DNA of 64,000 nt from Bacteriovoracaceae bacterium (GTDB lineage Bacteria > Bdellovibrionota > Bacteriovoracia > Bacteriovoracales > Bacteriovoracaceae), in contig JBBARF010000002.1 in NCBI GenBank assembly GCA_040399925.1, positions 3,213 through 67,212 of the forward strand, in the 5' to 3' direction. Below, one piece after another: positions 1 to 22,140 of the stretch (positions are counted from its first letter, which is position 1; each line of letters opens with the position of its first letter). The position numbers were made by a program, and so were the translations under genes. The notes under the pieces are model-generated. The model did not search any database. It saw only the letters and a list, made by a program, of their open reading frames with translations, and had not been told where the DNA came from.

Positions 1-2
1 GG

Positions 3-140: not shown

Positions 141-141
141 G

Positions 142-5391: not shown

Positions 5392-5440
5392 AGGTTTTTT
5401 CCTCATTGTATAGAATCTGACTTCAACATAAGATTTTCTT

Positions 5441-6781
5441 ATGTGTAAGCTAGGTTTCAAATTCTCAATTCTCTTATTTTTATTCCTGAATCTTCAGGCC
5501 CATGCCAATGATTCACGGTTAATTTTAGTTAGGAAAATTCAAGGTCTTGAGCAATTATCCGATGCTCTCGGCAGGCAGATGCAAACTTTAACTTTAAAAG
5601 TTGCTTCGCAACAGCCGGGTCACCAGATACTTCTTTCTGGAAGTGATACTCCTGAGTCAACTACTGTGGACATGGTTGCGATGGAAGCAGAAGTAGGTCG
5701 CTCAGAGAATGGATATAAAATTGAAACTCGTCTTCTTGATCTCAGATCCAAAAAGCTTTTAACTAAAGCGTCCTTAGAAAACATTCGAGAAGAAAACCTC
5801 CTCCGCATGTTCCAAGGGGCCCTAGAGTCTTTATTTATTCTAGATGAAAAAAATCCCTCAAAAGTCCCTAAAGTAAAAACTCCTCAGCCGGTAATCAAGA
5901 AAGAGAATCTAAGATCAAAACCGTCGACGACGCAGGTAAATCAAGCCGATCCCCCAACGCTAAAATTTAGAGAACGAGTTTTGCAAATGAAAGCTGATGC
6001 CGATGAGAGTATTCAAAAGATCGTAAATGATAAGCAGAACGCAGCACCGAGCGCCGAAAAGCTCTCTGCTCCTTCAACTCAATCAAGCTCTATGGCCTCT
6101 CCGAACCAAGTTTCGGTCGCAGAGGATCCGGTCAAAAAAGCAGTCATCGAGAAAACGTATGCAAAAAGTTATGGATTAGCTGGGGGTTATGATTCTAGAG
6201 AAATTAAAAGTCAGTATCTCGTTGGAACAACAACCAAAGCTCAGCTGTTAACCTTAAAGGCATCAGCTTTTTTTCCGATGGCGTTCTCAAGCGGGAAGGT
6301 TGGTGGAGATTTTGATATGGCCTATAGCCGGGCGATCTCATCTCCTGTGGTGTTGCCATCAATTTATCAAATAGGAGCTTTTCTCACTTGGAAAGAAGAG
6401 CGCTGGACTCTTTCAACGGGGCTTCAGCAAGATTCATCTTTTTTTGTTAACCTCCCCTCAGCGGGAGAAGGACTTAAGCCACAAACCATTACGGGAACAT
6501 GGCTAAAATTAAAATCATCGTTTCGGTTTTATGCCAAAGGTTATTGGAAAGTGAATTTGGGTTACGGATCACCATTGTTAGCTCAGACGAACTATTCTCC
6601 TCTCAAAAAGGTAACTAAGTGGTCGGGACTTAACGCTGTTCTTTCTGTCGTTCCACCCTGGTCCTATCGTCAATGGCAAGCAAACTTTACGATTGAAAAA
6701 ATTAATCTCAATACATCGGGAGAAACGTCATTTACCTTAAACGAATCACGAACTGGCTTATTTGCTACTCGGCAGCTTTAA
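5441..6781 (+). CDS. Exported protein: N-terminal TolB-N/CsgG-like alpha/beta domain, Pro/Lys/Ser-rich linker, C-terminal outer-membrane beta-barrel
   Basis: Signal peptide ending AHA; motif YKIETRLLDLRSKKLL typical of CsgG/FlgO/TolB-N folds; low-complexity linker; amphipathic aromatic beta-strands in the last 200 aa. Confidence 0.55.
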   Translation: MCKLGFKFSILLFLFLNLQAHANDSRLILVRKIQGLEQLSDALGRQMQTLTLKVASQQPGHQILLSGSDTPESTTVDMVAMEAEVGRSENGYKIETRLLDLRSKKLLTKASLENIREENLLRMFQGALESLFILDEKNPSKVPKVKTPQPVIKKENLRSKPSTTQVNQADPPTLKFRERVLQMKADADESIQKIVNDKQNAAPSAEKLSAPSTQSSSMASPNQVSVAEDPVKKAVIEKTYAKSYGLAGGYDSREIKSQYLVGTTTKAQLLTLKASAFFPMAFSSGKVGGDFDMAYSRAISSPVVLPSIYQIGAFLTWKEERWTLSTGLQQDSSFFVNLPSAGEGLKPQTITGTWLKLKSSFRFYAKGYWKVNLGYGSPLLAQTNYSPLKKVTKWSGLNAVLSVVPPWSYRQWQANFTIEKINLNTSGETSFTLNESRTGLFATRQL

Positions 6782-6810
6782 TATTTTGTAGTCAGGTCTC
6801 AGCTTACGAG

Positions 6811-7368
6811 ATGATTCAGTCAGGACTCAAAAAGTCTGATGAGTTTTCTCTCATGATGGGAATGGCGAATATAAGTTTCACAGAGTCTCAGAGTGCTTTA
6901 AGTGGGCCTAATCAGCAAACTCCTGCCTCAGGATCTGTAGCAAGCATCAGTGGGATGCTCCACTATCGATTCAGAACGGATGGAAATAAGGCCTGGTATG
7001 GCCAGTTTACCTTTCCTCTCATAGCAAGCCAGGGAACCTACTTTTCGAGTGGTGGTGGGCTGGAGTATTACTTTGGCAATTCAAATGCTGCCAAGGTAAT
7101 CCTCCAAGATGCTACGACATCTCTTAGTATTACTCCAGTAACTCGCTATTTTCTTTTATCTGGACTTAACATGGCCTACATTTCTTACCTAACTGATACG
7201 GCAAAGAAAAACGATACCCTTTTAGAAATTGATTTAGGTGGGGGAGTAAGTCGTCGTTTTGAGAAGTGGACTTTAAGGGCCCAGGCAGAAATTGCCCGGG
7301 GGATTGGGATATCGACCACAACTTTAGCAATGAAGGCCATGGTAGGTGGCATTTATTTCCTCGATTAA
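6811..7368 (+). CDS. Small outer-membrane beta-barrel protein (true start probably upstream, near 6730)
   Basis: Alternating hydrophobic beta-strands, Gly/aromatic rich, ends GGIYFLD. The frame is open back to 6706 and encodes a signal-peptide-like stretch there. Confidence 0.6.
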   Translation: MIQSGLKKSDEFSLMMGMANISFTESQSALSGPNQQTPASGSVASISGMLHYRFRTDGNKAWYGQFTFPLIASQGTYFSSGGGLEYYFGNSNAAKVILQDATTSLSITPVTRYFLLSGLNMAYISYLTDTAKKNDTLLEIDLGGGVSRRFEKWTLRAQAEIARGIGISTTTLAMKAMVGGIYFLD

Positions 7369-7420
7369 GAAACCTTTCAAGGAATATGAGTTTTATTGGA
7401 TAATAGTACTGGAGACTATT

Positions 7421-8026
7421 ATGAAACGGCTTTTATTCATTACTTTTATTCTGTCAATCATCTTGAGCGATGTATCAATGGCAGCTAAATTAAACATTAA
7501 AAGTCAGCCAGATGCCGCTGAGATTTTTATTAGCACAAACGGTAAACCTATACGTCTGGGTGTGACTCCTTACGAAGCGAACCTAACTGAGGTTATGAAC
7601 GTATACGTTAAATCAAATAGCTTCGTACTTGAAATTAGAAAATCTGGTCATACTCCTTACCGAGTACTTTTAGCTAAAACGACGGACTCCGATCTGGAAC
7701 TCACGGCCAACCTTGAATTAGACAAGGCCATATCAAATATCAAAGAGCATGATTCACTGATGAACCAACTTTTTGATGTTCAAAAACTTGTGAGAGGTCG
7801 CAACTTCCGTGATGCACTTTCGAAGTTAGATGATCTTGAGAAAAAACATCCAACTCTCTCTATTATTCCTGAAATGAAGGCCACGGCCTACTACATGAAT
7901 AAAGAAGTTGAGAGTGCTCTTAGTTATTACCGTAAAGCCTTTTCATTAAATTCAGACAATCATGATGCCTATAGGATGAAACTTTATCTCGAGAAAAAAC
8001 TCGGGGTAGATTCAGACGTTCAATGA
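7421..8026 (+). CDS. Periplasmic PEGA-domain + TPR protein
   Basis: GGAG at 7411 then ATG7421; signal peptide MKRLLFITFILSIILSDVSMA; PEGA motif KSQPDAAEIFI...GVTP; TPR helices AYYMNKEVESALSYYRKAFSLN. Confidence 0.75.
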   Translation: MKRLLFITFILSIILSDVSMAAKLNIKSQPDAAEIFISTNGKPIRLGVTPYEANLTEVMNVYVKSNSFVLEIRKSGHTPYRVLLAKTTDSDLELTANLELDKAISNIKEHDSLMNQLFDVQKLVRGRNFRDALSKLDDLEKKHPTLSIIPEMKATAYYMNKEVESALSYYRKAFSLNSDNHDAYRMKLYLEKKLGVDSDVQ

Positions 8027-9942
8027 TGAAATTTTCCATTGCATTTCTAGTTTGTTTAATCAGCGGTAATGTCTTTTCTTTAGCCGGAAATTCTTTGACT
8101 TGGCAAAAACTTGCTTTGGAAGAAAAAGTCCAGTCTAAGTATAATTCAACTATTTCAGCGCTCCTAAAAGATAACCAGTATATGGTTGATGTTGAAGTTG
8201 AAGTCTCTGAACCAGCTGCTCCTAATTTCGGAAATAATGGACATAAAGGTGGACCACGCGTTTCAGATCTTTCAATGGCCGAAGCTAGAGGCGATTACAT
8301 CGCATTCTCTAAAATGGGGCTTGAAGTTCCAGTGGTCGAAAAATTTCTTGATGAAGACCGCACAAAGCTGATGAACCTTTATCGTTTTAACGAAACCTAT
8401 GATGTCTTTAAGAGCATTAACTCACTTAATATTACTGTTTATCTTAGTGATAAGATTACTTCAGACCTCGCAGAGATTGTTAAAAAAGTTGTTGGAAATA
8501 CCAGAATCTCTGTCTCTGGAATTAAGCCAAAAATTAAATTCGAAAGTATCACGATGGAATGGGTCGATCCTGCTCTGAAAAAAATCGCTGATGATAAAAA
8601 ACTAGAGAAAAAACCTGAAGAGCAAGAACCAAAAATTTGGGCAAAGGATTGGTACGAATGGGCTTCTCGCTGGGGAAATGCAGTTGGTCTCATTCTTGGA
8701 GCTCTCATTATCAGCCTCATCGCTCTGTCACTTTTTAAGCAATGGAAAGCTTTTATGGAGAAATTTGCAGCTCAGGCCAATCAACCAAAGCCTGAGGAGA
8801 AGAAAGAAGAAGATGAGAAAGAAGAGGAACTTGCTACTGCACAAGCAACGAATATACCTAAAGAGGAAGAAGAGATGGCAGCTTCACACGATTTCGAAAG
8901 ATTCCAGCAGTGTCTTGAACAGCATTCAGATGAAGCTGTTAACATGGTGAGAAATTGGTTGAACGAGGACGAGGAAGCGTCTCTCTTGGCGCTACGTGGA
9001 GTAGCTCAACAGGTGAATGCTGCAGATATGGAAAAACTAATGGCGGGTTTGTCATCTGAGCAACGTGATAAGTGGAAAAATCTGATCCATCATCTTGAAC
9101 CCAAAGACTTAGTTACTGCTAACAAGCACATCTTTCAAGAAGTGATTCGTTATTTCTTAGTTCCAACAAAGATCAAAGATGGTGAGCTCCTAAATCTCAT
9201 CATGGAACTTAACTCCAAAGCAACCTTTGAATTCATCAATGCTAATAAAATCCATACTGGTGCGATGATGAACTTATTAAATCCAGTCATCGTTGGAAAG
9301 ATTCTAGCTGAAGTTGATGACGACACTGCTGACAACTGGCTAGCGTTAGGCGCTCAGTTTGACATTAAGAGAATGGATGAAGTGCTTCCGACTCTCAAAG
9401 AGGCCCTCCGTGCCCACAAAGAGGCCAATGGTCCGGCTCCGTTTGCTCAACGAATCATGACAATGATCCCGACATCATCTCCGAAAAGAGAAGGAGTTCT
9501 TTTTAGAGCTCTGGCCAAAGCTGGCAATGCTGGAATGGTGACAGAAGTCGCCAAACGCCACTTTCCGAGTGAGCTTATCTTAGAACTTCCGGTTCCTTTT
9601 CTAAAAGAAGTTCTACAGTCTTATCCGATTTCAAAAAGGGTAGAGTTTTTACAAAGTCGTCCGGAAGATGTCCGAGCAAATTTGATTGATATACTTGCTG
9701 AAACTGGTACACCGGCACGGGACATGCTCGACATGGAACTTGAAAATATTTCCCATGACGCTTCTAAGCTCCAATCCATATCTGATCGTAGTGAAGATAT
9801 TTGGTACGACTTTGTTAAGCTTTCGAGAATGAGTCTAAGTAAAAATTCTTCTTATGCCACGATCTTAAATCAGCTCATTCAAGAATGGAGCTCTCAGCTT
9901 CAAGGTAAGCTTCAGTCGATTAAGGGTGGAAAAGCCGCATAG
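8023..9942 (+). CDS. Putative natural FliF-FliG fusion: signal peptide, FliF RBM3/SpoIIIAG-like ring motif, TM helix, FliF C-tail, FliG N/M/C domains
   Basis: Segments match the FliF/FliG consensus patterns in the correct order: LEEKVQSKY..LL...VDVEVEV; INSLNITVYL..IVKKVVG; TM AVGLILGALIISLIALSLF; HSDEAVNMVRNWLNE; FPSELILELPVPFLKEVLQSY; ARDMLDMELENI. Confidence 0.75.
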   Translation: MMKFSIAFLVCLISGNVFSLAGNSLTWQKLALEEKVQSKYNSTISALLKDNQYMVDVEVEVSEPAAPNFGNNGHKGGPRVSDLSMAEARGDYIAFSKMGLEVPVVEKFLDEDRTKLMNLYRFNETYDVFKSINSLNITVYLSDKITSDLAEIVKKVVGNTRISVSGIKPKIKFESITMEWVDPALKKIADDKKLEKKPEEQEPKIWAKDWYEWASRWGNAVGLILGALIISLIALSLFKQWKAFMEKFAAQANQPKPEEKKEEDEKEEELATAQATNIPKEEEEMAASHDFERFQQCLEQHSDEAVNMVRNWLNEDEEASLLALRGVAQQVNAADMEKLMAGLSSEQRDKWKNLIHHLEPKDLVTANKHIFQEVIRYFLVPTKIKDGELLNLIMELNSKATFEFINANKIHTGAMMNLLNPVIVGKILAEVDDDTADNWLALGAQFDIKRMDEVLPTLKEALRAHKEANGPAPFAQRIMTMIPTSSPKREGVLFRALAKAGNAGMVTEVAKRHFPSELILELPVPFLKEVLQSYPISKRVEFLQSRPEDVRANLIDILAETGTPARDMLDMELENISHDASKLQSISDRSEDIWYDFVKLSRMSLSKNSSYATILNQLIQEWSSQLQGKLQSIKGGKAA

Positions 9943-9967
9943 GTGGCAATCTCTACCATCTTTTTTT
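9942..9967 (+). terminator. Weak Rho-independent terminator candidate
   Basis: GGTGG-caatct-CTACC stem (one G-U pair) followed by ATC and T7, directly after the stop codon. Confidence 0.4.
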
Positions 9968-10025
9968 ACCTCATAGGCTATTCTAGAATGGTAATTGCTA
10001 CAGCTCACCAATGACAGGAGGTCTT

Positions 10026-10526
10026 GTGAGAGGTCCAGATTCAAATGCTATTGAAAATACTCAAAAAACACCTGACAAAGAAAAAAGTGCTCAAACGGTT
10101 TATGACTGGAAAGTCGTTCTTGATAAAGGTCTAGGTGATGATAAGAATGTCATCTACCAAGAAAAAGCATGGGCCCAATTATGTTCTAAGATGCGTGAGG
10201 CGTGCCCTGAAACAAATTGGTATGCGATCTCGGAGCGGGTCGAAAAATGCACACCTGACAGAGCAGTGACGATTGATGCGATAGGAAAATGGCTTAATAA
10301 TCTCCTTGCCTCATCTGAATGGCCTTTTCCCGAAAAAATTATTCTGGTTTCTGTTCAAAGACCAACACCGAGTTGGAAAATTATCTTTGAAGGTAATTAC
10401 AAAAAGCTCCCTTTTACGAATCCTCCCTTAAGTTTATCAGTCATCCCTTTTCGGGATAAATTCTCTTCTGGCTGGACTATCCACGAAATAGATTCATATA
10501 ACATTAGCAAAGTTGGCGAAGCATGA
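10026..10526 (+). CDS. Hypothetical cytoplasmic protein
   Basis: AGGAGG at 10016-10021 favours GTG10026 over ATG10011; 4-bp overlap with the next gene; no family recognised. Confidence 0.65.
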   Translation: MRGPDSNAIENTQKTPDKEKSAQTVYDWKVVLDKGLGDDKNVIYQEKAWAQLCSKMREACPETNWYAISERVEKCTPDRAVTIDAIGKWLNNLLASSEWPFPEKIILVSVQRPTPSWKIIFEGNYKKLPFTNPPLSLSVIPFRDKFSSGWTIHEIDSYNISKVGEA

Positions 10527-11743
10527 AATCTTGTTTTATTTTGATTTTGTGTCTATTTTTTATACCTTTATCCCATGGCTCGAATCCATCTTTGACTAAC
10601 CTGCTTAAAACCATCGATGGAAAAATTAAGCATGATGAAAAGATTAAAAAAACAGCAGCCAATGAAACTAAATCAGTTTCAATCCCCTGGGGAATTGTAG
10701 ATCGGCGCGAGAGAAATCTTTGGACCTCTATAGTTTACGCTTACGATCACTTGAAAAATTTTTCTGCCACTGAAAGATATAATTTTATGTATGAGGCGAT
10801 GCGTGCCACTTCTTTTGGTCACCCAAAAAGAGTCTATGCTCTTAAAGCATGGATTAAAAAAGAAGATGCTCGTATGGTAAGCAGAGGCATGCCAGCGAAT
10901 TTCTATCTAAATTGGACTAAGCATGTTTTCTCCATTAATAAAGCCATTGATGAAGTCGGTGCTCCTCGTCCAACTGTTAATATACAAAAAACAGAATTAG
11001 GAATGGGCCCTGAAACGATAAGCTTCATTAAAAACCTTCGCGCTCAAATTGATCAGATCAAACCTGAAGCCTCTAAAGAAAAGTTTTCAATAGGTGAAAA
11101 AGTCGCTGAAAAGAAATCAAGCGCTTCTTTACCGATAAATGTTTTAATGTCGACGGTACTTCTTTCAATCTTGGGTTTTTACTTTGGAAGAAAAAGCAAG
11201 CCTGCGAAAGTGATCATTAAAACGATCAAGGTTCCGGTTCCTAAAGAAAAGACTGAGGTGACACCTGTTATTGAGGCCCAAGCGGCGCAGGTAAGTTTAG
11301 AGCAAGAATTTCACAAGTTATTAACTGAAAACTATCATCTGTTAGAAGTTGCGCAGATTAATGTCAACTTGGGGAATCGCAGTCCTTTCAATAGTGATGT
11401 GAATGCACCTCGAGAGTCTGTGTATGAGGCCCTTAAATGGCTTTTAAAAGGGACTATCGCTATCGCTAATACAAGTGGTTCAAGAGTGTCTCATATGGAA
11501 TGGAACTGTAAAGAAAGCCAAGGCAGAGTAACATTTCAATTCACTCTTCACGGAATTGAGTGTGATAATGATTCCCTCTATATGAATGCCCTGATAGATG
11601 GTGAAAACTCAGCTCCGGCCCACTTTGGAAGAAGTGAGCAGGCATTATCTGGGCATCTACCTTTGATTCAGTTCACATCAGGCAACCGTAAGACGAGTGT
11701 TTCTTTAGGACTGGATTCAATTAGATCTTCAATGAATCAATAA
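10523..11743 (+). CDS. Membrane protein: signal peptide, periplasmic domain, one TM helix, degenerate HATPase_c (GHKL)-like cytoplasmic domain
   Basis: N-terminal signal; TM INVLMSTVLLSILGFYFG; C-terminal helix-strand order (YEALKWLLKGTI...VTFQFTLHGIE...TSVSLGL) mimics HATPase_c, but N-box, G-boxes and H-box are missing. Confidence 0.55.
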   Translation: MKSCFILILCLFFIPLSHGSNPSLTNLLKTIDGKIKHDEKIKKTAANETKSVSIPWGIVDRRERNLWTSIVYAYDHLKNFSATERYNFMYEAMRATSFGHPKRVYALKAWIKKEDARMVSRGMPANFYLNWTKHVFSINKAIDEVGAPRPTVNIQKTELGMGPETISFIKNLRAQIDQIKPEASKEKFSIGEKVAEKKSSASLPINVLMSTVLLSILGFYFGRKSKPAKVIIKTIKVPVPKEKTEVTPVIEAQAAQVSLEQEFHKLLTENYHLLEVAQINVNLGNRSPFNSDVNAPRESVYEALKWLLKGTIAIANTSGSRVSHMEWNCKESQGRVTFQFTLHGIECDNDSLYMNALIDGENSAPAHFGRSEQALSGHLPLIQFTSGNRKTSVSLGLDSIRSSMNQ

Positions 11744-11750
11744 TATAAAA

Positions 11751-11783
11751 AAAGCCCCTAGGAATGATTCCGAGAGGTTTTAT
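11751..11783. terminator. Bidirectional terminator candidate between convergent genes
   Basis: A-tract, imperfect stem GCCCCTAGGAA-tga-TTCCGAGAGGT, then T-rich tract. Confidence 0.5.
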
Positions 11784-12182
11784 TTATTGATCTTGTTTGA
11801 AAATATAGGCATCAGCTGAATTGTCTGCTCCTTCACCATCTTGGAACAAAGCACCCGCTCTTATCTTACCGTTGTGTTTGGCGATAGGTTCTAAGACTCT
11901 AATCACGGCACGTCGGTTAAGCTTCGCAATTTCTCTAGGTGACACTCCATTTTTTGCTTCCATCTTATATTCGGCCACTGGTTCTCGATCTCCCTTGGCC
12001 AAAGCAACGAGGTATTCAGTCTTAAATCCGAAGTATTCAAACCTTGCAATGACTTGAGCCGCTCTGGCAGCACTCAAGGACCAGTGGTTCATATTACCAG
12101 CAATTAAGGATTCATTCTTATCTGCGTGGCCTTCAATGAGAATTCGATACTCAGTGTGATGGGCCTTAATCATCTCAATCAG
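11784..12182 (-). pseudogene. motB: 5'-truncated MotB (OmpA-like peptidoglycan-binding domain only)
   Basis: ILIEGHAD...NHWSLSAARAAQV...LVALAKGDREPV...NRRAVI is the MotB/OmpA C-terminal signature. There is no TM or plug region, and the frame is closed by TGA at 12216-12218 inside the neighbouring GT gene. Confidence 0.8.
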
Positions 12183-13054
12183 CCCATGGCCTCGAGAACT
12201 ACTCGACCGAATTCTTCAATGCGGGCCGGGAGGACGAAGAGGTCGATAGCATTATAGAAATTTTGAATGTCATCAAGGGATGGCTGAAACTTTACCACGG
12301 AGTCGAGATTTTTAGTTGTGATGAGATCACGGAAAGGTCCGGGCTCATCTTTACCGATAATTCGCACATCAATTTTTTGAAGGGTTTCGGGTTTGAGTTT
12401 GGCCAGAGCTTCAACAAAAATATCAAGCCCACGTTTTTTAAAATTTCCCGACGTGATGAGACTCACCACGATTTTATCGGTGAAACCAAAACGCTTGCGC
12501 TGAAATTGTTTTTCCTGTTTTGAGAGGGGAAAAAACATTTTGGTATCAAGGGCCGGATAGATGACCTGAATTTTTTCTGCCGGTACTCCAAAACGTTTGA
12601 TGGTGTCGTTTTTCATTAGCTTGGAATTTGCGATCATGTAACGGAAGCTTTGATTCTTGAGCAGTGGTCCGTGAGTCAGGGCCATCTCGTGATCAGCCGG
12701 TAGAGCTTTGTTATTGATGAGTTCAGAGGCGTAGAACACACAGTTATGGAGAGTCACCACGTCCTGATCTTGGATGTCTCCGTGACCGACGGTGATAGTG
12801 GGACTCAGTTTTTGGCGAAGGTTTTGCACTTGCCAGTTATACCAACGGCGGCGAGTGATGCCGGTGCTTTTGAGCCATGGGAGCATTTTATGAGGGATGA
12901 CTGAGATCGATTTTAAGGCATCTTTGTCCATGGTCATAGCGGCGACATGAACGACGTAACCCTTAGATTGAAAATAACGAATATTTTCAAACGCGGTTCG
13001 GGCGGAACCGGAGTTCTTGTGGAGTTGGAGCATGCAGATGAGGGCGGTTTTCAT
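12179..13054 (-). pseudogene. GT4 (WaaG/RfaG-like) glycosyltransferase, 3'-truncated
   Basis: GT-B motifs KRGLDIF and FVLPARIEEFGRVVLEAMG. The ORF stops immediately after the E-x7-E motif, where intact GT4 enzymes continue (G.PV...) for tens of residues. Confidence 0.8.
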
Positions 13055-13095
13055 ACTGTTAATATGTCACCGTTCTGAAGCAAATTCAAAGATAA

Positions 13096-13407
13096 TTAGG
13101 CGGCGTTTTTAATCGCTGCGGTAATTTTGAGTAGTGTTTCAATGTTGTAGTTTGATCCTGCAGCAACACGGCGAATTGTAGCAATGGGAAGTTTTGAAAT
13201 TCTCGAGAGTTCGTCTTTGTTGATGATGCTTAGGTAACCCATAATTATTTCTTGAAATGCTTCTCTGTCGCCTTCCATGAGGGCCTGTGACAATGCCAAA
13301 GTTACCTTCTCTTCACTTCGGGAAAAATCTTTAGGAGTTATCTTAAACAACTTCACGTTTTTCTTTAATTTGAGAGGCTTCATCATTTTGATATTAAACT
13401 TTGTCAT
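13096..13407 (-). CDS. HTH antitoxin-like protein (HI1420/addiction-module antidote type), no adjacent toxin
   Basis: ALSQALMEGDREAF...ELSRISKL..ATIRRVAAGSNYNIETLLKI resembles the antidote-family HTH. Confidence 0.65.
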   Translation of the reverse strand: MTKFNIKMMKPLKLKKNVKLFKITPKDFSRSEEKVTLALSQALMEGDREAFQEIIMGYLSIINKDELSRISKLPIATIRRVAAGSNYNIETLLKITAAIKNAA

Positions 13408-13440
13408 TATGATTCCTCGGATACGTATTTGATTATTAGT

Positions 13441-13487
13441 TTTCTAATGATCTTGAATATTTCATATGAAGACTTTGAATGCTTATC
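13441..13487. repeat. 47-bp imperfect direct repeat, copy 1
   Basis: 42/47 identical to 15820-15866 by manual alignment; contains the ATG and upstream region of a truncated paralog (MKYSRSLEN*). Confidence 0.85.
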
Positions 13488-13511
13488 AATTTTACTTTAA
13501 ATAAAATTCTT

Positions 13512-13556
13512 AAAAAAAACTATGTCCAAAAGGTACATGGCACCTTTTGGACATAG
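13512..13556 (-). terminator. 15-bp perfect hairpin followed by U8 on the minus strand
   Basis: CTATGTCCAAAAGGT-acatggc-ACCTTTTGGACATAG (13520-13556), with A8 at 13512-13519. Confidence 0.65.
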
Positions 13557-13674
13557 AGACCTTACGACCTAGGATGTTTTCCAAGTATGAAAAGAAACGA
13601 CAGAGTCTTAAGTGAGAGGATTTCTTTTTGATAGATGTGAGATATTGCAATTAAGCCATTGATATTAATGATTA

Positions 13675-13716
13675 TTGATAATAATACAAAGATGGTATAT
13701 ACTATATGTGTATATA
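13675..13716 (+). promoter_or_regulatory. Sigma70-type promoter with overlapping palindromic operator
   Basis: TTGATA(13675)-17 nt-TATACT(13698); inverted repeat TATATAC-N7-GTATATA (13696-13716) overlaps the -10 box. Confidence 0.6.
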
Positions 13717-13733
13717 TCAGATTGGGACAAGGT

Positions 13734-14069
13734 ATGAATCCAAATCTGCCAATACACCGTCAACGCTTGACCACTGATCGACGAGGTTGAATTTGTAAAA
13801 TTGAAGTTAGTATTGAGCAGACTGCTGACTCGAATATCTATCAACCAGATGGTCAAAAATGTGTTTTTAAAGTTTTGAGAGAAAAGTTAAAAGGCGAAGA
13901 AGAATTTGAAATTGTTCTCTTAATTGATAGTCACAGTCCTTTTGGATTTCATAATCACTCAAAGCTACCGCTGAATCATGAAGTTCGAGAAACCATCCAT
14001 GCATCAAATTGGATCGAAGCGTGGCATATATTCGATAAGAAAGTTAGGGAGCTATTGGATGAAGCTTAA
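13734..14069 (+). pseudogene. DUF6516/TumE-like toxin candidate interrupted by an in-frame TGA at 13788-13790
   Basis: ATG13734 is in frame with the track ORF 13875-14069; a single TGA separates MNPNLPIHRQRLTTDRRG from ICKIEVSI...IDSHSPFGFHNH. It sits upstream of an HVO_A0114-type gene, the usual pairing. Confidence 0.6.
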
Positions 14070-14499
14070 AATTTTAAATGTCATTTTTTCTAGTCATGAT
14101 GAATTCATGGGAGAATTAAAAGAAGCTTTATTCAATGGTAAAAACTCAAATGAAGCGAATCAAACTCTTTCGTTTGATAGTTTTGAAACATTCAAAAGGT
14201 TGATGACGGCCAATAAACTTGAAATTTTAATGGCGATAGCGAGAATAAAGCCGACCTCAATAAATCAACTATCAAAAATTTTGAATCGTGAATATCCTCA
14301 TGTCTTAAAGGACTGTAACTCACTTCTCAATTTGGGATTCATTAAATTAGAAATAGTTGAGAGTGCAAGAAAACAGTTTGTGCCAAAACTTGCTTTTGAC
14401 TACGACATCATTGTTGTGAAATCCCGCATAGAAGAAATATTTTCCATTTCTGAAAAATCTAACAAGGTACTCTTAATGGCGAGAGTGAATAATTTATGA
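14059..14499 (+). CDS. HVO_A0114-family (MarR-like wHTH) DNA-binding protein, putative antitoxin
   Basis: TLSFDSFETFKRLMTANKLEILMAI..IKPTSINQLSKILNREYPHVLKDCNSLLNLGFI; GGGAG at 14047 supports ATG14059. Confidence 0.75.
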   Translation: MKLKILNVIFSSHDEFMGELKEALFNGKNSNEANQTLSFDSFETFKRLMTANKLEILMAIARIKPTSINQLSKILNREYPHVLKDCNSLLNLGFIKLEIVESARKQFVPKLAFDYDIIVVKSRIEEIFSISEKSNKVLLMARVNNL

Positions 14500-15101
14500 A
14501 AAAGAAATTAGAAGTCATAAAGACTAAGCCAAATGATAAAAAAATGATCTATCGCTTGAGAATTAGTCTTGATGAAACTGAACCCGAGGTCTGGAGACGC
14601 CTTCTTGTTCCGGGAAAGCTTAGCTTGGAGAAGCTGCATCTTATTTTTCAAATAGTCATGGGATGGGAGAATTCGCATCTCCATGAATTTAAGATTCACT
14701 CTAAAAGATATATTAATCCGCTGAATGATCCAGATGCTATTTACTCCTTCCCGCCATCTTTTGATGAAAGGAAAGTCAAAATCGCTGATGTTTTAAGTAA
14801 AAAAGATCGATTCACTTACGATTACGACTTTGGAGATAATTGGTCTCATTCAGTAGTCGTTGAGGATGTTCTAAGTCCAAATGAGATTTTTACCTATCCT
14901 GTTTGCCTCGACGGTGCGAATGCCTGTCCCCCCGAAGATAGTGGAGGCATTCATGGGTACTATGCCCTATTGGAAGATCTGGCACAGGAAGATTCAAAAG
15001 AGCATGAGAATGCGATGGCATGGGTCGGTGGGCAGTTTAATCCAAGTTCTTTTGATGCAAACCGAATCAATAGAGATGTCCTTTGGCTGTTGAAATGGTG
15101 A
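14496..15101 (+). CDS. Plasmid pRiA4b ORF-3 family protein
   Basis: Signature motifs VWRRLLVP..LSLEKLH, MGWENSHLHEF, YDYDFGDNW, GANACPPEDSGG. Confidence 0.9.
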   Translation: MKKKLEVIKTKPNDKKMIYRLRISLDETEPEVWRRLLVPGKLSLEKLHLIFQIVMGWENSHLHEFKIHSKRYINPLNDPDAIYSFPPSFDERKVKIADVLSKKDRFTYDYDFGDNWSHSVVVEDVLSPNEIFTYPVCLDGANACPPEDSGGIHGYYALLEDLAQEDSKEHENAMAWVGGQFNPSSFDANRINRDVLWLLKW

Positions 15102-15124
15102 CTTTTTAAACGAGCTCTATCATT

Positions 15125-15524
15125 TTATCTAAACTTTGAAAGTTTTCTACCTCTAGGTACTTCTTCAAACATGCTCAAAAACGCATTCGCTCTAGGAATT
15201 AACTTCGGAGAGCTTCCTTTCTTTTGGATTTTGTTGGTTGAAAATTTTTCAAGAGTTTTTAAGAGATACGCTTGTTCATAGAGTTTAAGATAATGTTTTA
15301 CGAGATCGACGTTTACCCCTCCTGGAGTTGACCTAAAAATTTATTAAGGCTTAAGACCTCTCCCGCATGTAAACAGGCCACTTCGTCCTAAGCCATTCAG
15401 GTTTTGAACTAAATACGGAATCAGCATTTTCATAAATGAAATGACGAAGGCCTAGGATAACTTGGATAAACCTAGTTTCTTCTAACAGGACTTGCTTTAA
15501 GTGAGATACAAAAGGTCTCTTCAT
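15125..15524 (-). pseudogene. Decayed AAA_14/DUF4143-type ATP-binding protein
   Basis: Three out-of-frame fragments: MKRPFVSHLKQVLLEETRFIQVILGLR (start of Walker A, broken), ACLHAGEVLSLNKFLGQLQ, and NVDLVKHYLKLYEQAYLLKTLEKFSTNKIQKKGSSPKL. Confidence 0.7.
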
Positions 15525-15622
15525 AAAATAGTAGGACAAGCTACTATTTTTAGTAGGTCAACCTATCAAAAAAGAATAGCTCTGGTTTAATTGATTAAAT
15601 ACAGGTGTTTGGGGTGTCTTTT

Positions 15623-15844
15623 TTATTGATTTAGGCGACGTGACTTTTTTGCAGCTTTTTCAAAATCATCAGCCAATTCTGAAAGTATTGCATCTAAAGC
15701 GCTCTCTGTGACAGGGAGATTGTTCTCTTGGAGCTCACTGACAGCGTTATAGACCGCGCCTGAAACAAAGTTTTTTGCTTCAATTGGTCCCATTTTACCA
15801 TTGATGATTTCGTATAATTTTTCTAATGATTTTGAGGATTTCAT
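15623..15844 (-). CDS. Small hypothetical helical protein (73 aa)
   Basis: Clean ORF downstream of brnA on the same strand; its 5' end is duplicated at 13441-13487. Confidence 0.6.
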   Translation of the reverse strand: MKSSKSLEKLYEIINGKMGPIEAKNFVSGAVYNAVSELQENNLPVTESALDAILSELADDFEKAAKKSRRLNQ

Positions 15845-15866
15845 ATGACGCCTTTGAATGCTTATC
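15820..15866. repeat. 47-bp imperfect direct repeat, copy 2
   Basis: 42/47 identical to 13441-13487. Confidence 0.85.
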
Positions 15867-15918
15867 GGTCTCTTTAGGGCTTTTGTTTAATTTTAACCTG
15901 CTAATCATTATAGTTCGT

Positions 15919-16161
15919 TTATGCTGTTTTATTTAAAGATTCCTCAAGTGAATTCCTTATCCATTTTTGGTAATCCAGGCCTTCTAATTCGGCTTTTTCT
16001 TTAATTGCTTCGAGCAGATCCTCACTCATACGTAGGGTTACTGTTTTGTTTTTAGGCTTTAGTTCAAAATTTACTTTTTTCCATCCTGGAAGATCGAACA
16101 AAGAGGTTAGATCCCGTTTAAGAGGATCTTTATTTTTTGAAGGTTTCTTTGAACTTTTCAT
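15919..16161 (-). CDS. brnA: BrnA/CopG-type RHH antitoxin
   Basis: C-terminal RHH motif KTVTLRMSEDLLEAIKEKAELEGLDYQKWI; overlaps the brnT stop. Confidence 0.8.
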   Translation of the reverse strand: MKSSKKPSKNKDPLKRDLTSLFDLPGWKKVNFELKPKNKTVTLRMSEDLLEAIKEKAELEGLDYQKWIRNSLEESLNKTA

Positions 16162-16411
16162 ATTTAGTAGCTTCTTTTGGTCTCATGAACCTTGCTGAAA
16201 TAACTCGTATTTTAGTATCCCTGAAAGTGAAACATACAAACATTGGCTTGCCGGATTTTCCTCGTCCAACCGCGATAAAGCGTTCCTCGGTTTTGGAATG
16301 ATTTGGGTCTGGGATAATCATTAAATCTTGTTGAAAAAACTCCTCTATTTCTTCAATAGGGAATCTTTTGAGGATTTTACCGATGTTCCCTTCATCCCAT
16401 TCAAAAATCAT
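16130..16411 (-). CDS. brnT: BrnT family ribonuclease toxin (DUF497)
   Basis: FEWDEGN...EEIEEFF...DPNHSKTEERFIAVG...VCFTFRDTKIRVISAR. Confidence 0.9.
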   Translation of the reverse strand: MIFEWDEGNIGKILKRFPIEEIEEFFQQDLMIIPDPNHSKTEERFIAVGRGKSGKPMFVCFTFRDTKIRVISARFMRPKEATKYEKFKETFKK

Positions 16412-16434
16412 TCTCTACCTCAATTAGACCATGA

Positions 16435-16463
16435 ATTACAAGAAATGTAAATACAAATGTAAA
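16435..16463 (-). promoter_or_regulatory. Putative brnTA promoter with tandem operator repeats
   Basis: On the minus strand TTTACA-17 nt-TGTAAT; 9-bp direct repeat AAATGTAAA at 16443 and 16455. Confidence 0.45.
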
Positions 16464-16540
16464 CACTCGGATTTGTAAAGATATTATAGATTAATGAAGG
16501 CGCGTTTTATAAGCTCAAAGAGAATTTTAGTGGAAGATTT

Positions 16541-17188
16541 TCAAAACCGATAAAGCAAATCAGTAAACACCGTCGATTCTTCATCAAAGTGATGCTTACT
16601 TTCAAGCACCCGTGCTGAAACAAAAGTGAAGTGGGGTTTCAAGAGTTTTTGGTACTTCTCCCGAGTGCGGTGGATGGCGTACTCGTCTTTAAAATCGAGC
16701 TCCGAAACCTGGCGGCCGAGCTCCACGTTGGTGGGAACGGTAAGATATAGGTACTTAATTCGTTGGGCGAGAATCGGGATAATTTCTTTGAGATCCTTAT
16801 CGCTCAGATACTGAAAAACCGAAGTGCAAATGCCGAGGTCGAAAGGTTTTGATTTCTTAGCATCTCCGCGGCACCAAGTAAGAAGATCCATTTCGAAAAG
16901 GCGCAGGTCAGTTGAGGGGACTGGGCGCAGTTTATCCAGTTTTGCCTTTTTAAAAATATAGGGCGAGGGTTCAATGCCGATGGCTGTGTGAGGAATGAAG
17001 GCCTTCATCATTTCGCGGAAAAGATGGCCGTAACCGAAACCGAGATCGACGATGGTACCGATGTCGACGTGCTCGATGGCGAAGAATGATTGGAGGTAAC
17101 GGGTGTGCTCTTTAGCATTGCCGATGCCGTCCATGGACATGGGGTCTGAGTAGTTTTTATCCCAGTAGGTTTTGTCGAAGGCTTTCAT
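16541..17188 (-). CDS. Class I SAM-dependent methyltransferase
   Basis: Motif I VDLGFGYG, motif II GIEPS, post-II FDLGICTSVFQY. ATG17188 (MKAFDKTYW) is preferred over the track start at 17248. Confidence 0.8.
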   Translation of the reverse strand: MKAFDKTYWDKNYSDPMSMDGIGNAKEHTRYLQSFFAIEHVDIGTIVDLGFGYGHLFREMMKAFIPHTAIGIEPSPYIFKKAKLDKLRPVPSTDLRLFEMDLLTWCRGDAKKSKPFDLGICTSVFQYLSDKDLKEIIPILAQRIKYLYLTVPTNVELGRQVSELDFKDEYAIHRTREKYQKLLKPHFTFVSARVLESKHHFDEESTVFTDLLYRF

Positions 17189-17357
17189 GTGTAAAAATGT
17201 ACAGTTCAAACCCGCATTTTGACTACAATCAAATCCTTTAATTCCCAATATTCGTTTAAATTCCCTATTGGAAAATTTTTGTTAACTGTTCTGAAAAAAC
17301 TGTGACTCTGGGCCAAGCACTGCTAATAATCACGTAAATACAGGCGTTTGATGAGTA

Positions 17358-17401
17358 TTGATATAAACTGATAATCGGCTATAATGTAAACTAGGTTTAC
17401 A
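17358..17401 (+). promoter_or_regulatory. Sigma70 promoter with perfect palindromic operator
   Basis: TTGATA(17358)-16 nt-TATAAT(17380); TGTAAAC-tag-GTTTACA (17385-17401) covers the transcription start region. Confidence 0.7.
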
Positions 17402-17419
17402 CCGATAAGAAGGTGGGAT

Positions 17420-17761
17420 GTGGCGACATCAAGAAGAAAACCAGAAAAAAAGAGCGATCTAAGTTTGTTTGAATTGGTAGAAAGGAGAGTTGAAAATGTT
17501 GACTACATTTTTCTACCACACGCAAAAGCAAGATTGTCGGAGAGAGATATTTTAGAACCGGCCGTTCTGGATATCCTCGAAGGTAGGCATGGAAGGAAAC
17601 GGAAAAGAAATAAGAGAAAAGATGCTTACAAAGATGGCAATAAGGATTGGAATTATTGTATTGAAGGAGTCTCTCCTGATAATGAGAAAATTCGAATAAT
17701 ATTAAGCTTTGACGAAAAGATGATGCTTATCATAACTGTGATGTGGGTAGGGAAGGAATAA
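17420..17761 (+). CDS. DUF4258-family toxin-like protein
   Basis: YIFLPHAKARLSERDI....VLDIL...WNYCIEG....KIRIILSF...MLIITVM; located directly upstream of an HTH gene. Confidence 0.75.
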   Translation: MATSRRKPEKKSDLSLFELVERRVENVDYIFLPHAKARLSERDILEPAVLDILEGRHGRKRKRNKRKDAYKDGNKDWNYCIEGVSPDNEKIRIILSFDEKMMLIITVMWVGKE

Positions 17762-17762
17762 A

Positions 17763-18212
17763 ATGGAAACGAAAATTCAACAGAAGTATATTTATGAAGG
17801 TTTAGGTTTTCCTGTCGAACTTCATAACGTCATTATGGTAAAAGTAGGGAAAGAATGGGCACCAAAGATTGATGTAAGAAAAATTGCCAAGGATGCCTTA
17901 AAAGAAATTCCGACTCAACAAACCCGATTAACCGGCGCGCAAATTAGATTTGTTAGAGAGTCTTTTGGAATGTCTCTCCGAGTGTTCGCTACAAAAGTGG
18001 TCCATCAGTCCCACATGGCGGTCAGCAAATGGGAAAAATTTGACGATGAACCAACGAATATGGATGCAGCTACCGAGGTTGTGCTCAGACTATATGTCTT
18101 CCATGAGGTAACAGCAAAAAAACCAAAACAAGAAATGAAGTTTTTTCAGGCCTACGAAATAATAAGTTCCATGGTTTTTAAGGATTCTAAGTTAGTTGCT
18201 TTGAGCCTTTAA
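17763..18212 (+). CDS. MqsA/YgiT-like XRE HTH antitoxin (no Zn finger)
   Basis: LTGAQIRFVRESFGMSLRVFA...SHMAVSKWE HTH; 1-bp gap after the toxin. Confidence 0.8.
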   Translation: METKIQQKYIYEGLGFPVELHNVIMVKVGKEWAPKIDVRKIAKDALKEIPTQQTRLTGAQIRFVRESFGMSLRVFATKVVHQSHMAVSKWEKFDDEPTNMDAATEVVLRLYVFHEVTAKKPKQEMKFFQAYEIISSMVFKDSKLVALSL

Positions 18213-18223
18213 TTTTTTTAATA

Positions 18224-18406
18224 ATGAAACGAAGGCGTCATTCAGTAGAGTCTTCTGCGAAGAGACTTCTAGGCATGGTTGAAGCCCTGATCAAGTCTGG
18301 TGCAGATATTCGCTTGGAAGCTATATTTGAGGAAGTTAAGAAGAAAGTTGCGGGCCTTGATAAGAAGATAAGGCTTCATAGGAAAGTTGAATCGGTTAAT
18401 TATTGA
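18224..18406 (+). CDS. Short hypothetical ORF or gene fragment
   Basis: 60-aa ORF following the TA pair; weak RBS; no confident family. Confidence 0.3.
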   Translation: MKRRRHSVESSAKRLLGMVEALIKSGADIRLEAIFEEVKKKVAGLDKKIRLHRKVESVNY

Positions 18407-18425
18407 TAGTTTGTTTGTGGAGAGG

Positions 18426-19988
18426 TCATTGTTTCATCCATAGTTCATGGCCGCATTGTCCTACAAAAATCTTTCTGAATTCGACTCCTGATGGTGAAGT
18501 GACCGAAGTCTTATTTTTAAGATCGTTATAAAACCGTTTTTTCTCGTCCCAGTTCTCAACCATCTTTCCGTAGAAATCTTTGGGAGGATCATTAAGGTAT
18601 TGTGTTGAGTTATGTCTGGTGACACCGAAGAAAACTACTTTTTCAGTAATCTTGCTCCAGTCAATTCCCCAATGAGCGGAGGTGTATTTATCGATTTTTT
18701 CGTCGGTTGGGAAATACGGTTCTTTAGCTACAAGATGATTTTCAGAAACGGTGGAAGAAATAATTTTCGTGATCTGATCGTACTCACTAAAACATGCGTT
18801 TTGCATTTTCTTCATTGCAAAATAGTTAGGACTAATTCCAATCAGTTTTATTCCGACTAAAATCAAAACTGCCGCAGCAAGATTAGAATTTACTCGCCAA
18901 GGTAAATAATGAAGTACCAAAACAAGGACTAGTACCATAAATGCAATCACTAGTGGCATTGTATGATGATCGCCATTAAACGACATCTTTCTCATTAAAA
19001 TAGGAATGAAACTTATGATCACCAAGGCGACTATTTTAAAAGAAAATAATTTTTCTCGGTTTTGAGAAAAGATGCTACCAACAAGTATAATTGGAGCGAC
19101 ATAAATTAATTGGTTTCCTGCAATACCTAGAATCTTTGAAATAGACTCTAAATCACCTATAGAATGGACGCTGCTTTCAAGAAGCAAAAACCGAATGTGT
19201 TTATAGAAGCCGAAGTTTTGCGGAAAGCCTACTGCTAAGTAAGCCAAGAGCATGTAACTAACATACTTTAGTGTGAGAGAAAGATTTTTTTTATTTAAAG
19301 GTACTATGAGAAGTAACAAGATCCCAGGTATGAAAATGGAGGTTGACCGCTTTACCGCCATGGCCAAGCCCCAAGTGAAGGCTGAAATAATTAGAATACG
19401 AAGATTCTCTTTTTCCGACAGAAAGCGAGCAAACATATATACAGCGATAGCAGTAAAGACATTTAGGAGATGCTCGGGATGAGGCCGAAAAATCCATTCA
19501 GTCCACATCGGTATTTGTAGTGTCGAGAGAAGGAAGAACATTCCAAAAAGTGGAACGATATAAACAGTTCCAAAAAATACCCATCCTATAAACAGACCCA
19601 AACTATACAATGAGAAAAGCGAAACAAGCTTGAGAGCAAAATTATGAGACTTTTCTCTGCCTTCTAGAGATGTCAGATTACCATTTTGCAATGGTACTAA
19701 ATCGGCAATTGACTGAGAAAGCCGGTAATAAAGGTTTCCATACGGGGCAAAATGATTCGAATTGTACCATCTGGTGGCCATAGAAGTTTCAATGGCCCTC
19801 CCCCCATCATTGTCGCCAGCAAAGACATAGCCCTTGTGTGTTGAGGTCTCATAGAGCGGAATCGACAAGTTAATGAGCAAATAAGCTGAAATCATTAGCG
19901 AGAATAACCATGAAACAACTCTGAAGGTATCCGAGATTAAGTGGTGGCTTCTTAAGAGAGAAAACTGCTGTAAAATAAATGCTTTCAA
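18426..19988 (-). CDS. Polytopic membrane protein, GT-C (ArnT/PMT-like) glycosyltransferase candidate
   Basis: About 11 TM helices, first-loop acidic motif DNDGG, conserved-type GLAMAVK, soluble C-terminal domain. Confidence 0.55.
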   Translation of the reverse strand: MKAFILQQFSLLRSHHLISDTFRVVSWLFSLMISAYLLINLSIPLYETSTHKGYVFAGDNDGGRAIETSMATRWYNSNHFAPYGNLYYRLSQSIADLVPLQNGNLTSLEGREKSHNFALKLVSLFSLYSLGLFIGWVFFGTVYIVPLFGMFFLLSTLQIPMWTEWIFRPHPEHLLNVFTAIAVYMFARFLSEKENLRILIISAFTWGLAMAVKRSTSIFIPGILLLLIVPLNKKNLSLTLKYVSYMLLAYLAVGFPQNFGFYKHIRFLLLESSVHSIGDLESISKILGIAGNQLIYVAPIILVGSIFSQNREKLFSFKIVALVIISFIPILMRKMSFNGDHHTMPLVIAFMVLVLVLVLHYLPWRVNSNLAAAVLILVGIKLIGISPNYFAMKKMQNACFSEYDQITKIISSTVSENHLVAKEPYFPTDEKIDKYTSAHWGIDWSKITEKVVFFGVTRHNSTQYLNDPPKDFYGKMVENWDEKKRFYNDLKNKTSVTSPSGVEFRKIFVGQCGHELWMKQ

Positions 19989-20032
19989 TACTTAATCCTG
20001 AGTTCTAATTGGAGAAAAATTAGTTTAGTATT

Positions 20033-21373
20033 TTGACTACTAAAATACAAAATTTGATTTCTTTAAATAGGAGTTTTGCTTTGCGAAATAATGTCATTGA
20101 AGCATCAAAAGCTTTTTTTCAACAACAGGGCGTTAAGAAGATTGTTCCAGGCACGGATTATATCCCTGTATCTGGAAAAGTTCTGGAAGAAGACGATCTG
20201 ACCAATCTTATTGAATCTTGCCTCGACCTCTGGTTAACCACCGGTCGTTTTGCTAAAGATTTTGAAAAGCAGTTCGCTACTTTCATGGAACAAAAATACT
20301 GTTTACTCGTCAATTCTGGATCATCGGCCAATCTAGTTGCTTTCAGTGCTCTGACTTCACCAGTTCTTGGAAAAGATATGGTTAAAGTTGGGGATGAAGT
20401 TATTACGGTCGCTGCTGGTTTTCCAACGACGGTCAATCCGATCATTCAATGTGGCTGTATTCCAGTTTTCGTCGATGTCGAAGCTGATACCCACCAAGTG
20501 GACATTACTCTTTTAGAAAAAGCTTTAAGTCCTAAAACTTCAGCAGTGATGATTGCCCATACTCTGGGAAATCCTTTCAACGTTAAAGCGGTTAAAGAAT
20601 TTTGCGACAAGCATGATCTTTGGCTGGTTGAAGATTGTTGTGATGCTGTTGGTGCTCGCCACCACGGTAAGATGATAGGAACTTTCGGTGATATCGCTAC
20701 AGTGAGCTTTTATCCTGCTCACCATATGACTATGGGTGAAGGCGGAGCTGTTCTCATGTCTGAGCATCGTTTGAAAAAGATTGCAGAAAGTTTCCGTGAC
20801 TGGGGTCGTGACTGTTGGTGCCCGACTGGAAAAGATAACTCATGCAATAATCGTTTTGGTCAGAAAATGGGCGAATTGCCAGAAGGCTATGATCATAAAT
20901 ATATCTACACTCACATTGGTTACAATCTCAAAGTGACGGATATGCAAGCGGCCATTGGTCTGTCTCAACTTCGTAAGCTTCCTAAGTTTATTGAAATGAG
21001 AAATGCCAATGCAAAATATCTTTCAACTAAACTTGAACATCTTACCCAGTTCATTAACTTGCCTAAAGTTACTCCTGATAGTGAGCCGAGTTGGTTTGGA
21101 TATCCGATTACCATTAAGGATCCTCGCATTTCAAGAAACGCTCTGGTTAAATTTCTTGAAGCTAATAAAATTGGAACTCGTTTGCTCTTCGCTGGAAATC
21201 TTTTACGCCAACCTCTTTATGAGCATGCTCCCAAGAGAGTCGTGGGTGAACTGAAGAATACCGATAAAATTATGAATGATACTTTCTGGACTGGAGTTTA
21301 TCCGGCGATCAAAGAAGTTCACTTAGATTATATCGCTTTAAAAATTGAAGAAGGAATTAAGGCACAACTATGA
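20033..21373 (+). CDS. rfbH: CDP-4-keto-6-deoxyglucose 3-dehydrase E1 (RfbH/DdhC)
   Basis: IPVSGKV, NSGSSANL, SFYPAHHMTMGEGG, RDWGRDCWC Fe-S Cys motif, RLLFAGNL. Confidence 0.93.
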   Translation: MTTKIQNLISLNRSFALRNNVIEASKAFFQQQGVKKIVPGTDYIPVSGKVLEEDDLTNLIESCLDLWLTTGRFAKDFEKQFATFMEQKYCLLVNSGSSANLVAFSALTSPVLGKDMVKVGDEVITVAAGFPTTVNPIIQCGCIPVFVDVEADTHQVDITLLEKALSPKTSAVMIAHTLGNPFNVKAVKEFCDKHDLWLVEDCCDAVGARHHGKMIGTFGDIATVSFYPAHHMTMGEGGAVLMSEHRLKKIAESFRDWGRDCWCPTGKDNSCNNRFGQKMGELPEGYDHKYIYTHIGYNLKVTDMQAAIGLSQLRKLPKFIEMRNANAKYLSTKLEHLTQFINLPKVTPDSEPSWFGYPITIKDPRISRNALVKFLEANKIGTRLLFAGNLLRQPLYEHAPKRVVGELKNTDKIMNDTFWTGVYPAIKEVHLDYIALKIEEGIKAQL

Positions 21374-22140
21374 AAGTCGCAATTCTCGCAGGTGGATACG
21401 GAACAAGATTAAGTGAAGAGACCGACATTAAACCAAAACCAATGGTTGATATTGGTGGAAAGCCCATCATCTGGCACATCATGAAACACTATTCTCATTA
21501 CGGGCATAATGAATTCGTCATCCTTTGTGGTTACAAGAGCTATTACATTAAAGAATATTTCGCGAACTATTTTCTTCATCAGAGTGACGTTACGTTTGAT
21601 ATTAAAAATAATAAAATGGAAATTCACAACAACACTAGTGAACCATGGAAAGTGACTTTGGTTGATACCGGTCTTGAAACAATGACTGGCGGGCGTGTGA
21701 AACGGGCTGAGAAGTTTTTAAAAGATGATACCTTTCTTCTTACTTACGGTGATGGAGTGAGTGACATTGATCTTGAAAAATTGATCTCCTTCCATAAGAA
21801 GAATGGCAAGCTCATGACTCTGACTTCGGTTCAACCTGATGGCAGATTCGGAGCACTTGAACTTGAAGGAGATTTGATCCGTAAATTTGCCGAGAAACCA
21901 AAAGGCGACGGTTCTTGGATCAATGGCGGCTTCTTTGTATGTGAGCCGAAAATTTTTGATTACATTACTGAAGGTGACGCAACAATTCTCGAAAGATCTC
22001 CTCTGGAAAAACTCGCTAACGAAAGACAACTCGTGGCTTTCAAACACGAAGGATTCTGGAGACCAATGGACACTCTTAGAGATAAAGTTCAGCTGGAACA
22101 ACTATGGGCCGATAAGAAGGCTCCATGGAAGGTTTGGTAG
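21370..22140 (+). CDS. rfbF: Glucose-1-phosphate cytidylyltransferase
   Basis: ILAGGYGTRLSEET..KPKPMV, VDTGLETMTGGRVKR, LTYGDGVSD. Confidence 0.95.
   Translation: MKVAILAGGYGTRLSEETDIKPKPMVDIGGKPIIWHIMKHYSHYGHNEFVILCGYKSYYIKEYFANYFLHQSDVTFDIKNNKMEIHNNTSEPWKVTLVDTGLETMTGGRVKRAEKFLKDDTFLLTYGDGVSDIDLEKLISFHKKNGKLMTLTSVQPDGRFGALELEGDLIRKFAEKPKGDGSWINGGFFVCEPKIFDYITEGDATILERSPLEKLANERQLVAFKHEGFWRPMDTLRDKVQLEQLWADKKAPWKVW

Follow-up and report, generated by a model that had tools for sequence, protein, structure and literature searches.

A probable chimeric joint between a WaaG-like glycosyltransferase gene and motB in a draft Bacteriovoracaceae genome

Two truncated genes at a sharp joint

The stretch of DNA analyzed here (the window, 64,000 nt) corresponds to C2:3213–67212, i.e., to a part of contig C2 of the draft genome G000, which comprises 195 contigs and is 92% complete, with 2.9% estimated contamination. 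The homologues carry the label MAG Bacteriovoracaceae bacterium. The features relevant to the joint are as follows:

1–11743, plus strand: motor-like gene cluster, with a giant lipoprotein, a FliF-FliG fusion at 8023–9942, and others
11784–12181, minus strand: 3′ part of motB, consisting of 2 nt of codon 121 and codons 122–252 (full-length MotB, 252 aa), which encode the OmpA-like half that binds peptidoglycan
12179–12181, minus strand: TGA stop created by the join, closing the glycosyltransferase frame right after Gly291
12181–12182, no strand: junction at which two unrelated loci meet, sharing 1 nt (C) as microhomology; equivalent to C2:15393–15394, where contig C2 was probably misjoined
12182–12223, minus strand: overlap with contig C8, with 42 nt matching C8:1–42 exactly (exact-match search; blastn of contig ends)
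12182–13054, minus strand: 5′ part of a WaaG-like GT4 gene, codons 1–291 of a reconstructed 371-aa protein (Pfam)

Read on the minus strand, the sequence across the join is ...GTT CTC GAG GCC ATG GGC TGA TTG AGA TGA... A GT4 glycosyltransferase open reading frame (ORF) of 291 aa (12179–13054) ends here with the residues EAMG and a stop, and a second ORF of 129 aa (11784–12173), encoding the C-terminal part of an OmpA/MotB protein, starts 5 nt past that end. The frame overlapping the glycosyltransferase end reads GLIEMIKAHHTEYRILIEGHAD, with its stop at 11784. The first residues of the 129-aa ORF are MIKAHHTEYRILIEGHAD; as called, this ORF begins at the internal Met124 of MotB, with the frame being open back to GLIEM. 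Homology to the glycosyltransferases reached up to GGGC, and homology to MotB set in from (C)TGATTGAG, which places the cut between 12181 and 12182. At the DNA level, the glycosyltransferase side ends with ...GCCATGGGC, the motB side starts with (C)TGATTGAGATG, and the intact motB sequence runs ...GGTAGATACC directly into CTGATTGAG; in a side-by-side comparison of the three sequences, one base was common to both partners.

Pfam analysis of the glycosyltransferase ORF identified a Glyco_transf_4 domain (PF13439, 41.6 bits) and an incomplete Glycos_transf_1 domain, covering profile positions 5–113 of 172 and breaking off with the final residue that the ORF encodes. The EX7E motif, EEFGRVVLE, was read directly from the sequence within this 5′ part. 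On the MotB ORF, the OmpA domain (PF00691; 32.9 bits, cut-off 27.2) was matched at profile positions 27–93 of 98, starting from residue 7, and was thus cut at its 5′ side; no N-terminal transmembrane helix/plug (PF13677) was detected by Pfam in this ORF.

Glycosyltransferase orthologues in the same genus are 353–384 aa long, with identities of up to 70%, and the best database homologues besides the protein itself (n = 119) span 273–404 aa, nearly all of them 343–404 aa, with the tail covered; only the window product was short. With regard to MotB, orthologues of the same genus have 254–266 aa and are up to 75% identical, and an alignment of six of them together with a MotB fragment from contig C43 of the same assembly placed the beginning of the homology exactly at L-I-E-M. 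Since the homologues are full length (343–404 aa for the glycosyltransferase and 252–266 aa for MotB), both genes are cut in the contig. The first-pass annotation had described a sharp junction between a 3′-truncated GT4 gene and a 5′-truncated motB, with the cut at about 12180–12185; the ORFs, the Pfam matches and the homologue lengths bear out this description, and its own counter-case, namely that full-length homologues naturally end at EAMG and start at MIKAH, did not hold.

The missing gene parts in the assembly, in relatives and in independent assemblies

In order to locate motA and the missing halves of both genes in the assembly, as the first-pass annotation had proposed, genes of relatives were compared with the whole genome by tblastn. 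The tail of the glycosyltransferase, comprising 80 aa, was found at the very start of contig C8 (C8:1–270), while residues 1–84 of MotB were located at the very end of C43 (C43:26254–26505), with motA directly upstream (C43:25442–26251). The MotA encoded there matches the NCBIfam MotA/PomA/MotP models, with scores below the equivalog cut-offs.

The exact overlap with C8 stops at the junction. Where the window shows the stop, the same glycosyltransferase frame in C8 runs on with ACG GGT CTT... (TGLPVITTDK...), and past the 42-nt overlap the sequence reads in frame TGLPVITTDKVGGGELL...DKQR up to its stop codon. The resulting composite protein of 371 aa is 79% identical to the 369-aa P0001, without gaps and through the breakpoint (LEAMGTGLPVITTDKVG versus LEAMGSGLPVITTDKVG), and its Glycos_transf_1 domain was complete only once the C8 tail had been added. 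As reconstructed (371 aa), it has the same Glyco_transf_4 plus Glycos_transf_1 layout and the same EX7E motif as WaaG/RfaG-like GT4 enzymes; in the window, by contrast, its last 80 codons are lost to the join. Homologues with 44–67% identity are named UDP-glucose:(heptosyl)LPS alpha-1,3-glucosyltransferase by the automated annotation of JGI. Judged from its sequence, the reconstructed protein is an ordinary WaaG-like GT4 enzyme, for which the donor and acceptor assignment is predicted.

With respect to motB, only 108 nt (36 codons) are missing from the assembly. The corresponding 36 aa were not found in it, and were recovered from contigs of other assemblies, one from JGI (L037) and two from Logan (L040 and L042). 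The transmembrane/plug part was present in the C43-end fragment, as it was in the complete motB genes (252 aa) carried by L037, L040 and L042 (MotB_plug plus OmpA in precomputed Pfam), and motB lies directly downstream of motA in C43, in these three contigs and in the relatives, an arrangement that is not found in the window. The pair is composed like the MotA/MotB (PomA/PomB, MotP/MotS) stators, i.e., a MotA_ExbB protein of 265–269 aa and, after it, a MotB of 252 aa in which a MotB_plug domain is combined with an OmpA-like one. It differs from them in that only the C-terminal 131 codons of MotB are carried in the window, and in that the pair adjoins a non-flagellar FliF-FliG fusion cluster instead of being located in a flagellar operon. 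A second motA-motB pair is present at C6:39168–40778 in the same genome; its MotB open frame has 297 aa and is 40% identical to the fragment, and the pair is probably the canonical flagellar stator.

Independent assemblies contained the motB side in its intact form. The 406-aa neighbor of motB (window 10523–11743) is encoded identically on JGI contig Ga0574185_002398 from metagenome 3300057100 (L037), where it is followed by the 252-aa MotB (MotB_plug plus OmpA) and a 265-aa MotA. The match between L037 and C2 extends over 5660 nt at 100% identity and ends exactly at C2:15394 (window 12182); beyond the breakpoint, L037 continues with the 108 missing nt and then with the C43 end at 99.2% identity. 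The intact MotB protein is also encoded on L040 (SRR14578333, from a 62-kb contig) and on L042 (SRR27216430), the latter consisting of C43:25768–26505 at 100%, the 108 nt, and C2:15394–14066 at 100%. The matches of L037, L040, L041 and L042 to C2 all stop at C2:15394. A further contig of SRR27216430, L038, is 100% identical to the glycosyltransferase side over 5176 nt. The complete identity of L042 and L038 to the two sides indicates that SRR27216430 holds the same strain as G000, of which it is a candidate source run. In L042, an independent assembler joined C43 to the motB side of the window, with no branch at the breakpoint; as far as assembled sequence can tell, this contig is decisive for the motB side. 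In other samples, strain microdiversity was observed at the locus, with identities of 99.2–99.7% to C43 and 98.9% to C2. A patch of the FliF-FliG gene (window 9753–9795, in its 3′ part) held 14 of the 37 differences to L040 that were found over 3.4 kb, all within 43 nt; the patch is hypervariable or recombined, the strain of L040 being otherwise 99% identical.

On the glycosyltransferase side, none of the independent contigs passes through the breakpoint in intact form, with L038 and L039 ending 50–56 nt short of it. Exact-pattern scans of JGI metagenome contigs gave no match for a 26-mer from the glycosyltransferase side of the breakpoint or for a 30-mer from the tail; exact-product look-ups returned no record elsewhere for four proteins encoded on C8, and when the C-terminal 111 aa of the composite glycosyltransferase served as query, homology searching gave only matches of 64–68% identity. 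The intact glycosyltransferase gene of this strain is thus without an independent witness. The truncated products themselves, i.e., the glycosyltransferase and the MotB fragment, were likewise in no record elsewhere in exact-product look-ups. At window 12232–12238, Logan contigs of SRR27216430 and SRR10607563 that are 100% identical to the glycosyltransferase side both stop, which makes a recurring break inside the gene at 12232 and 12238, 50–56 nt from the junction; assembly near the junction on this side is evidently a general difficulty.

Comparison with relatives, another check that had been suggested, revealed that the flanks of the GT4 gene and of motB are separate loci there. Window positions 1–12173 match the motB-side locus (G015:C41, G008:C5, G016:C14 and G019:C44), positions 12179–24000 match the glycosyltransferase-side locus (G015:C24, G024:C46 and G018:C83), and in relatives with both loci these are always on different contigs. 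The motor-like cluster is collinear in G015, G008, G016 and G019 according to tblastn synteny, and is accompanied by a convergent intact motB-motA pair; in L037, L040 and L042, motA-motB also adjoin the motor-like cluster. Orthologues of C43 genes are found upstream of motB in relatives. Downstream of the glycosyltransferase gene, G024 carries an orthologue of the first gene of C8 (a DEAD-box helicase) and G015 an orthologue of C8:5339–6952. This gene order identifies C8 and C43 as the sequences into which the two loci continued ancestrally.

On the glycosyltransferase side, a small island with an HVO_A0114-family gene (PF25212) followed by a PRiA4_ORF3-domain gene (PF07929) (window 13978–15101, plus strand) sits between the glycosyltransferase gene and a toxin-antitoxin pair, and is missing from the glycosyltransferase loci of relatives. 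The toxin-antitoxin pair (window 15919–16411, minus strand) consists of overlapping genes for a BrnT toxin (93 aa) and a CopG/BrnA antitoxin (80 aa), as identified by precomputed Pfam on the identical L038. A methyltransferase gene at window 16541–17248 is present in one copy, and G018 has two copies of it on its contig C83 (L029; 4844–5485 and 7979–8614), with 79% and 74% identity.

Origin of the joint

In the assembly, dozens of contig ends share exactly 55 nt with another contig end, a few dead ends share less (e.g., 38 nt), and the smallest contig has 5063 nt. The 55-nt end overlaps and the absence of contigs below 5 kb are characteristic of a SPAdes-type de Bruijn assembly with k = 55 and a 5-kb filter. 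Four interior sites also match contig ends (of C4, C100, C140 and C17/C67) over 49–55 nt, namely C8:42759–42813, C45:2544–2598, C63:7457–7511 and C101:8721–8769; C8, C45, C63 and C101 were likewise carried through graph branch points, and further misjoins could be hidden there.

Taken from assembled contigs, this evidence makes it very probable that the join between 12181 and 12182 is a chimeric contig join and not the structure of the chromosome of the organism. Contig C2 would then consist of two real loci spliced at one point. The first would lead from C43 through the 108 nt missing from the assembly to window 12181 and down to position 1, and would carry motA, the intact 252-aa motB (transmembrane/plug plus OmpA-like) and the convergent FliF-FliG cluster. 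The second would lead from window 64000 down to 12182 and on into C8, with the intact 371-aa WaaG-like GT4 gene followed by the DEAD-box helicase gene. A chimeric read or fragment may have supplied the false bridge, or the assembler may have created it in choosing a path or in scaffolding. The overlap with C8, at only 42 nt and thus shorter than k, suggests that 55-mers were locally lacking on the true glycosyltransferase path at the junction; such a gap in coverage would have interrupted the contig in any case. The short true edge of motB (108 nt) may have been lost to the 5-kb contig filter.

Chimeric contigs are known from metagenome assemblies and MAGs that were built from short reads with de Bruijn graphs, and the joint resembles them in its sharpness, in the fact that the loci are separate in all relatives, in the dead-end true continuations within its own assembly, in the overlap shorter than k and in the intact form seen in other assemblies of the strain. 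In contrast to such contigs, the usual shared repeat at the joint is lacking, which leaves a chimeric fragment, or a path/scaffold decision in a coverage gap, as the assumed cause. A repeat-induced misjoin or an overlap created by the SPAdes gap closer was rejected: 1 nt is shared at the joint and no repeats of at least 20 nt occur elsewhere in the genome. A de Bruijn assembler writes a junction only if its k-mers exist in a read or in a contig from an earlier k; at least one sequenced molecule or chimeric fragment must thus have carried this joint, and that fragment could have come from a real minority variant. Against a chimera, the assembler chose the junction path over the intact glycosyltransferase path, which would fit a well-supported junction form too.

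We consider it unlikely that the joint represents a real structural variant present beside the intact form in the sampled population. Such a variant would be either a deletion that takes out at least 81 kb between the middle parts of the glycosyltransferase gene and motB, or the novel joint formed when the segment in between is duplicated in tandem or excised as a circle; illegitimate recombination at 1 nt of microhomology would have produced it. The orientation is compatible with it, since C8 and C43 are both oriented like the minus strand of C2, and an order of right part of C2, C8...C43 and left part of C2 with the middle removed would give exactly this joint. That the contig was carried through the joint while C8 and C43 were left separate is also as expected at a two-way branch, and the strain microdiversity at the locus would suit the coexistence of two forms. 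However, the assembly of SRR27216430, identical to both C2 and C43, is unbranched at the motB breakpoint, which indicates that the junction form is absent or rare in that sample. Furthermore, the DNA to be removed is ordinary chromosomal, with metH, mgtE, manC, pilT and cls among the genes of C8 and C43 and no mobile island, which argues against site-specific excision; the lack of records for the truncated products also speaks against a variant, and the overlap with C8, shorter than k, points to a local coverage gap and not to a clean branch. If the deletion variant were true, cells carrying it would be without this stator pair and without a functional copy of this glycosyltransferase.

A fixed deletion, in which the glycosyltransferase tail, the transmembrane/plug part of MotB and motA were truly lost and C8 and C43 were misbinned from another organism, is hardly tenable. 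The truncated ORFs in the deposited contig and the estimated contamination of the bin would be in line with it, but L042 ties C43 to the motB side of the window with full identity on both sides, C8 overlaps the glycosyltransferase side exactly and completes that gene in frame, and the gene order of both contigs corresponds to how each locus continues in the relatives. Their GC and tetranucleotide profiles are typical of the genome; since both halves of C2 and also C8 and C43 are Bacteriovoracaceae-like (38–42% GC), these profiles do not discriminate among the four. That there is no truncation and both are natural short genes is next to inconceivable: that both are open reading frames is all that speaks for it, against which stand the Pfam profiles cut at the ORF ends and the full length of all orthologues and of the 119 database homologues.

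Between the two explanations offered in the first-pass annotation, the assembly chimera is thus favored by the C8 and C43 contig ends and by the intact motA-motB of independent assemblies. The deletion proposed there, of the glycosyltransferase tail, the motB transmembrane region and probably motA, is at odds with the tail at the start of C8 and with motA and the MotB N-terminus at the end of C43. The rotor left without its local stator did not stand either, given that intact motA-motB genes adjoin sequence that is 100% identical to the motB flank of the window.

Implications for the genome and its motor-like cluster

The value of the chimeric reading lies mainly in quality control: contig C2 is to be split between C2:15393 and C2:15394 (window 12181 and 12182), and two predicted proteins, the 291-aa glycosyltransferase and the OmpA-family protein of 129 aa, are to be disregarded as artefacts of the annotation. 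Were the joint real in a sub-population instead, a Bacteriovoracaceae strain living beside an intact one would be missing at least 81 kb between the WaaG-like glycosyltransferase gene and the stator gene, or would carry the complementary segment in duplicated or circular form; this is quite improbable in our assessment, and if true, it would constitute a natural stator knock-out of an unusual non-flagellar FliF-FliG rotor cluster.

With the two loci restored, nothing new emerges biologically, as the genes are an ordinary WaaG-like GT4 gene and a MotA/MotB-type stator pair beside a FliF-FliG fusion cluster. On the evidence of gene order, this cluster keeps its predicted stator, an adjacent intact motA-motB pair, as it does in relatives. 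The FliF-FliG cluster is not an orphan rotor, and arguments drawn from a stator-less rotor or from a motB remnant in this genome fall.
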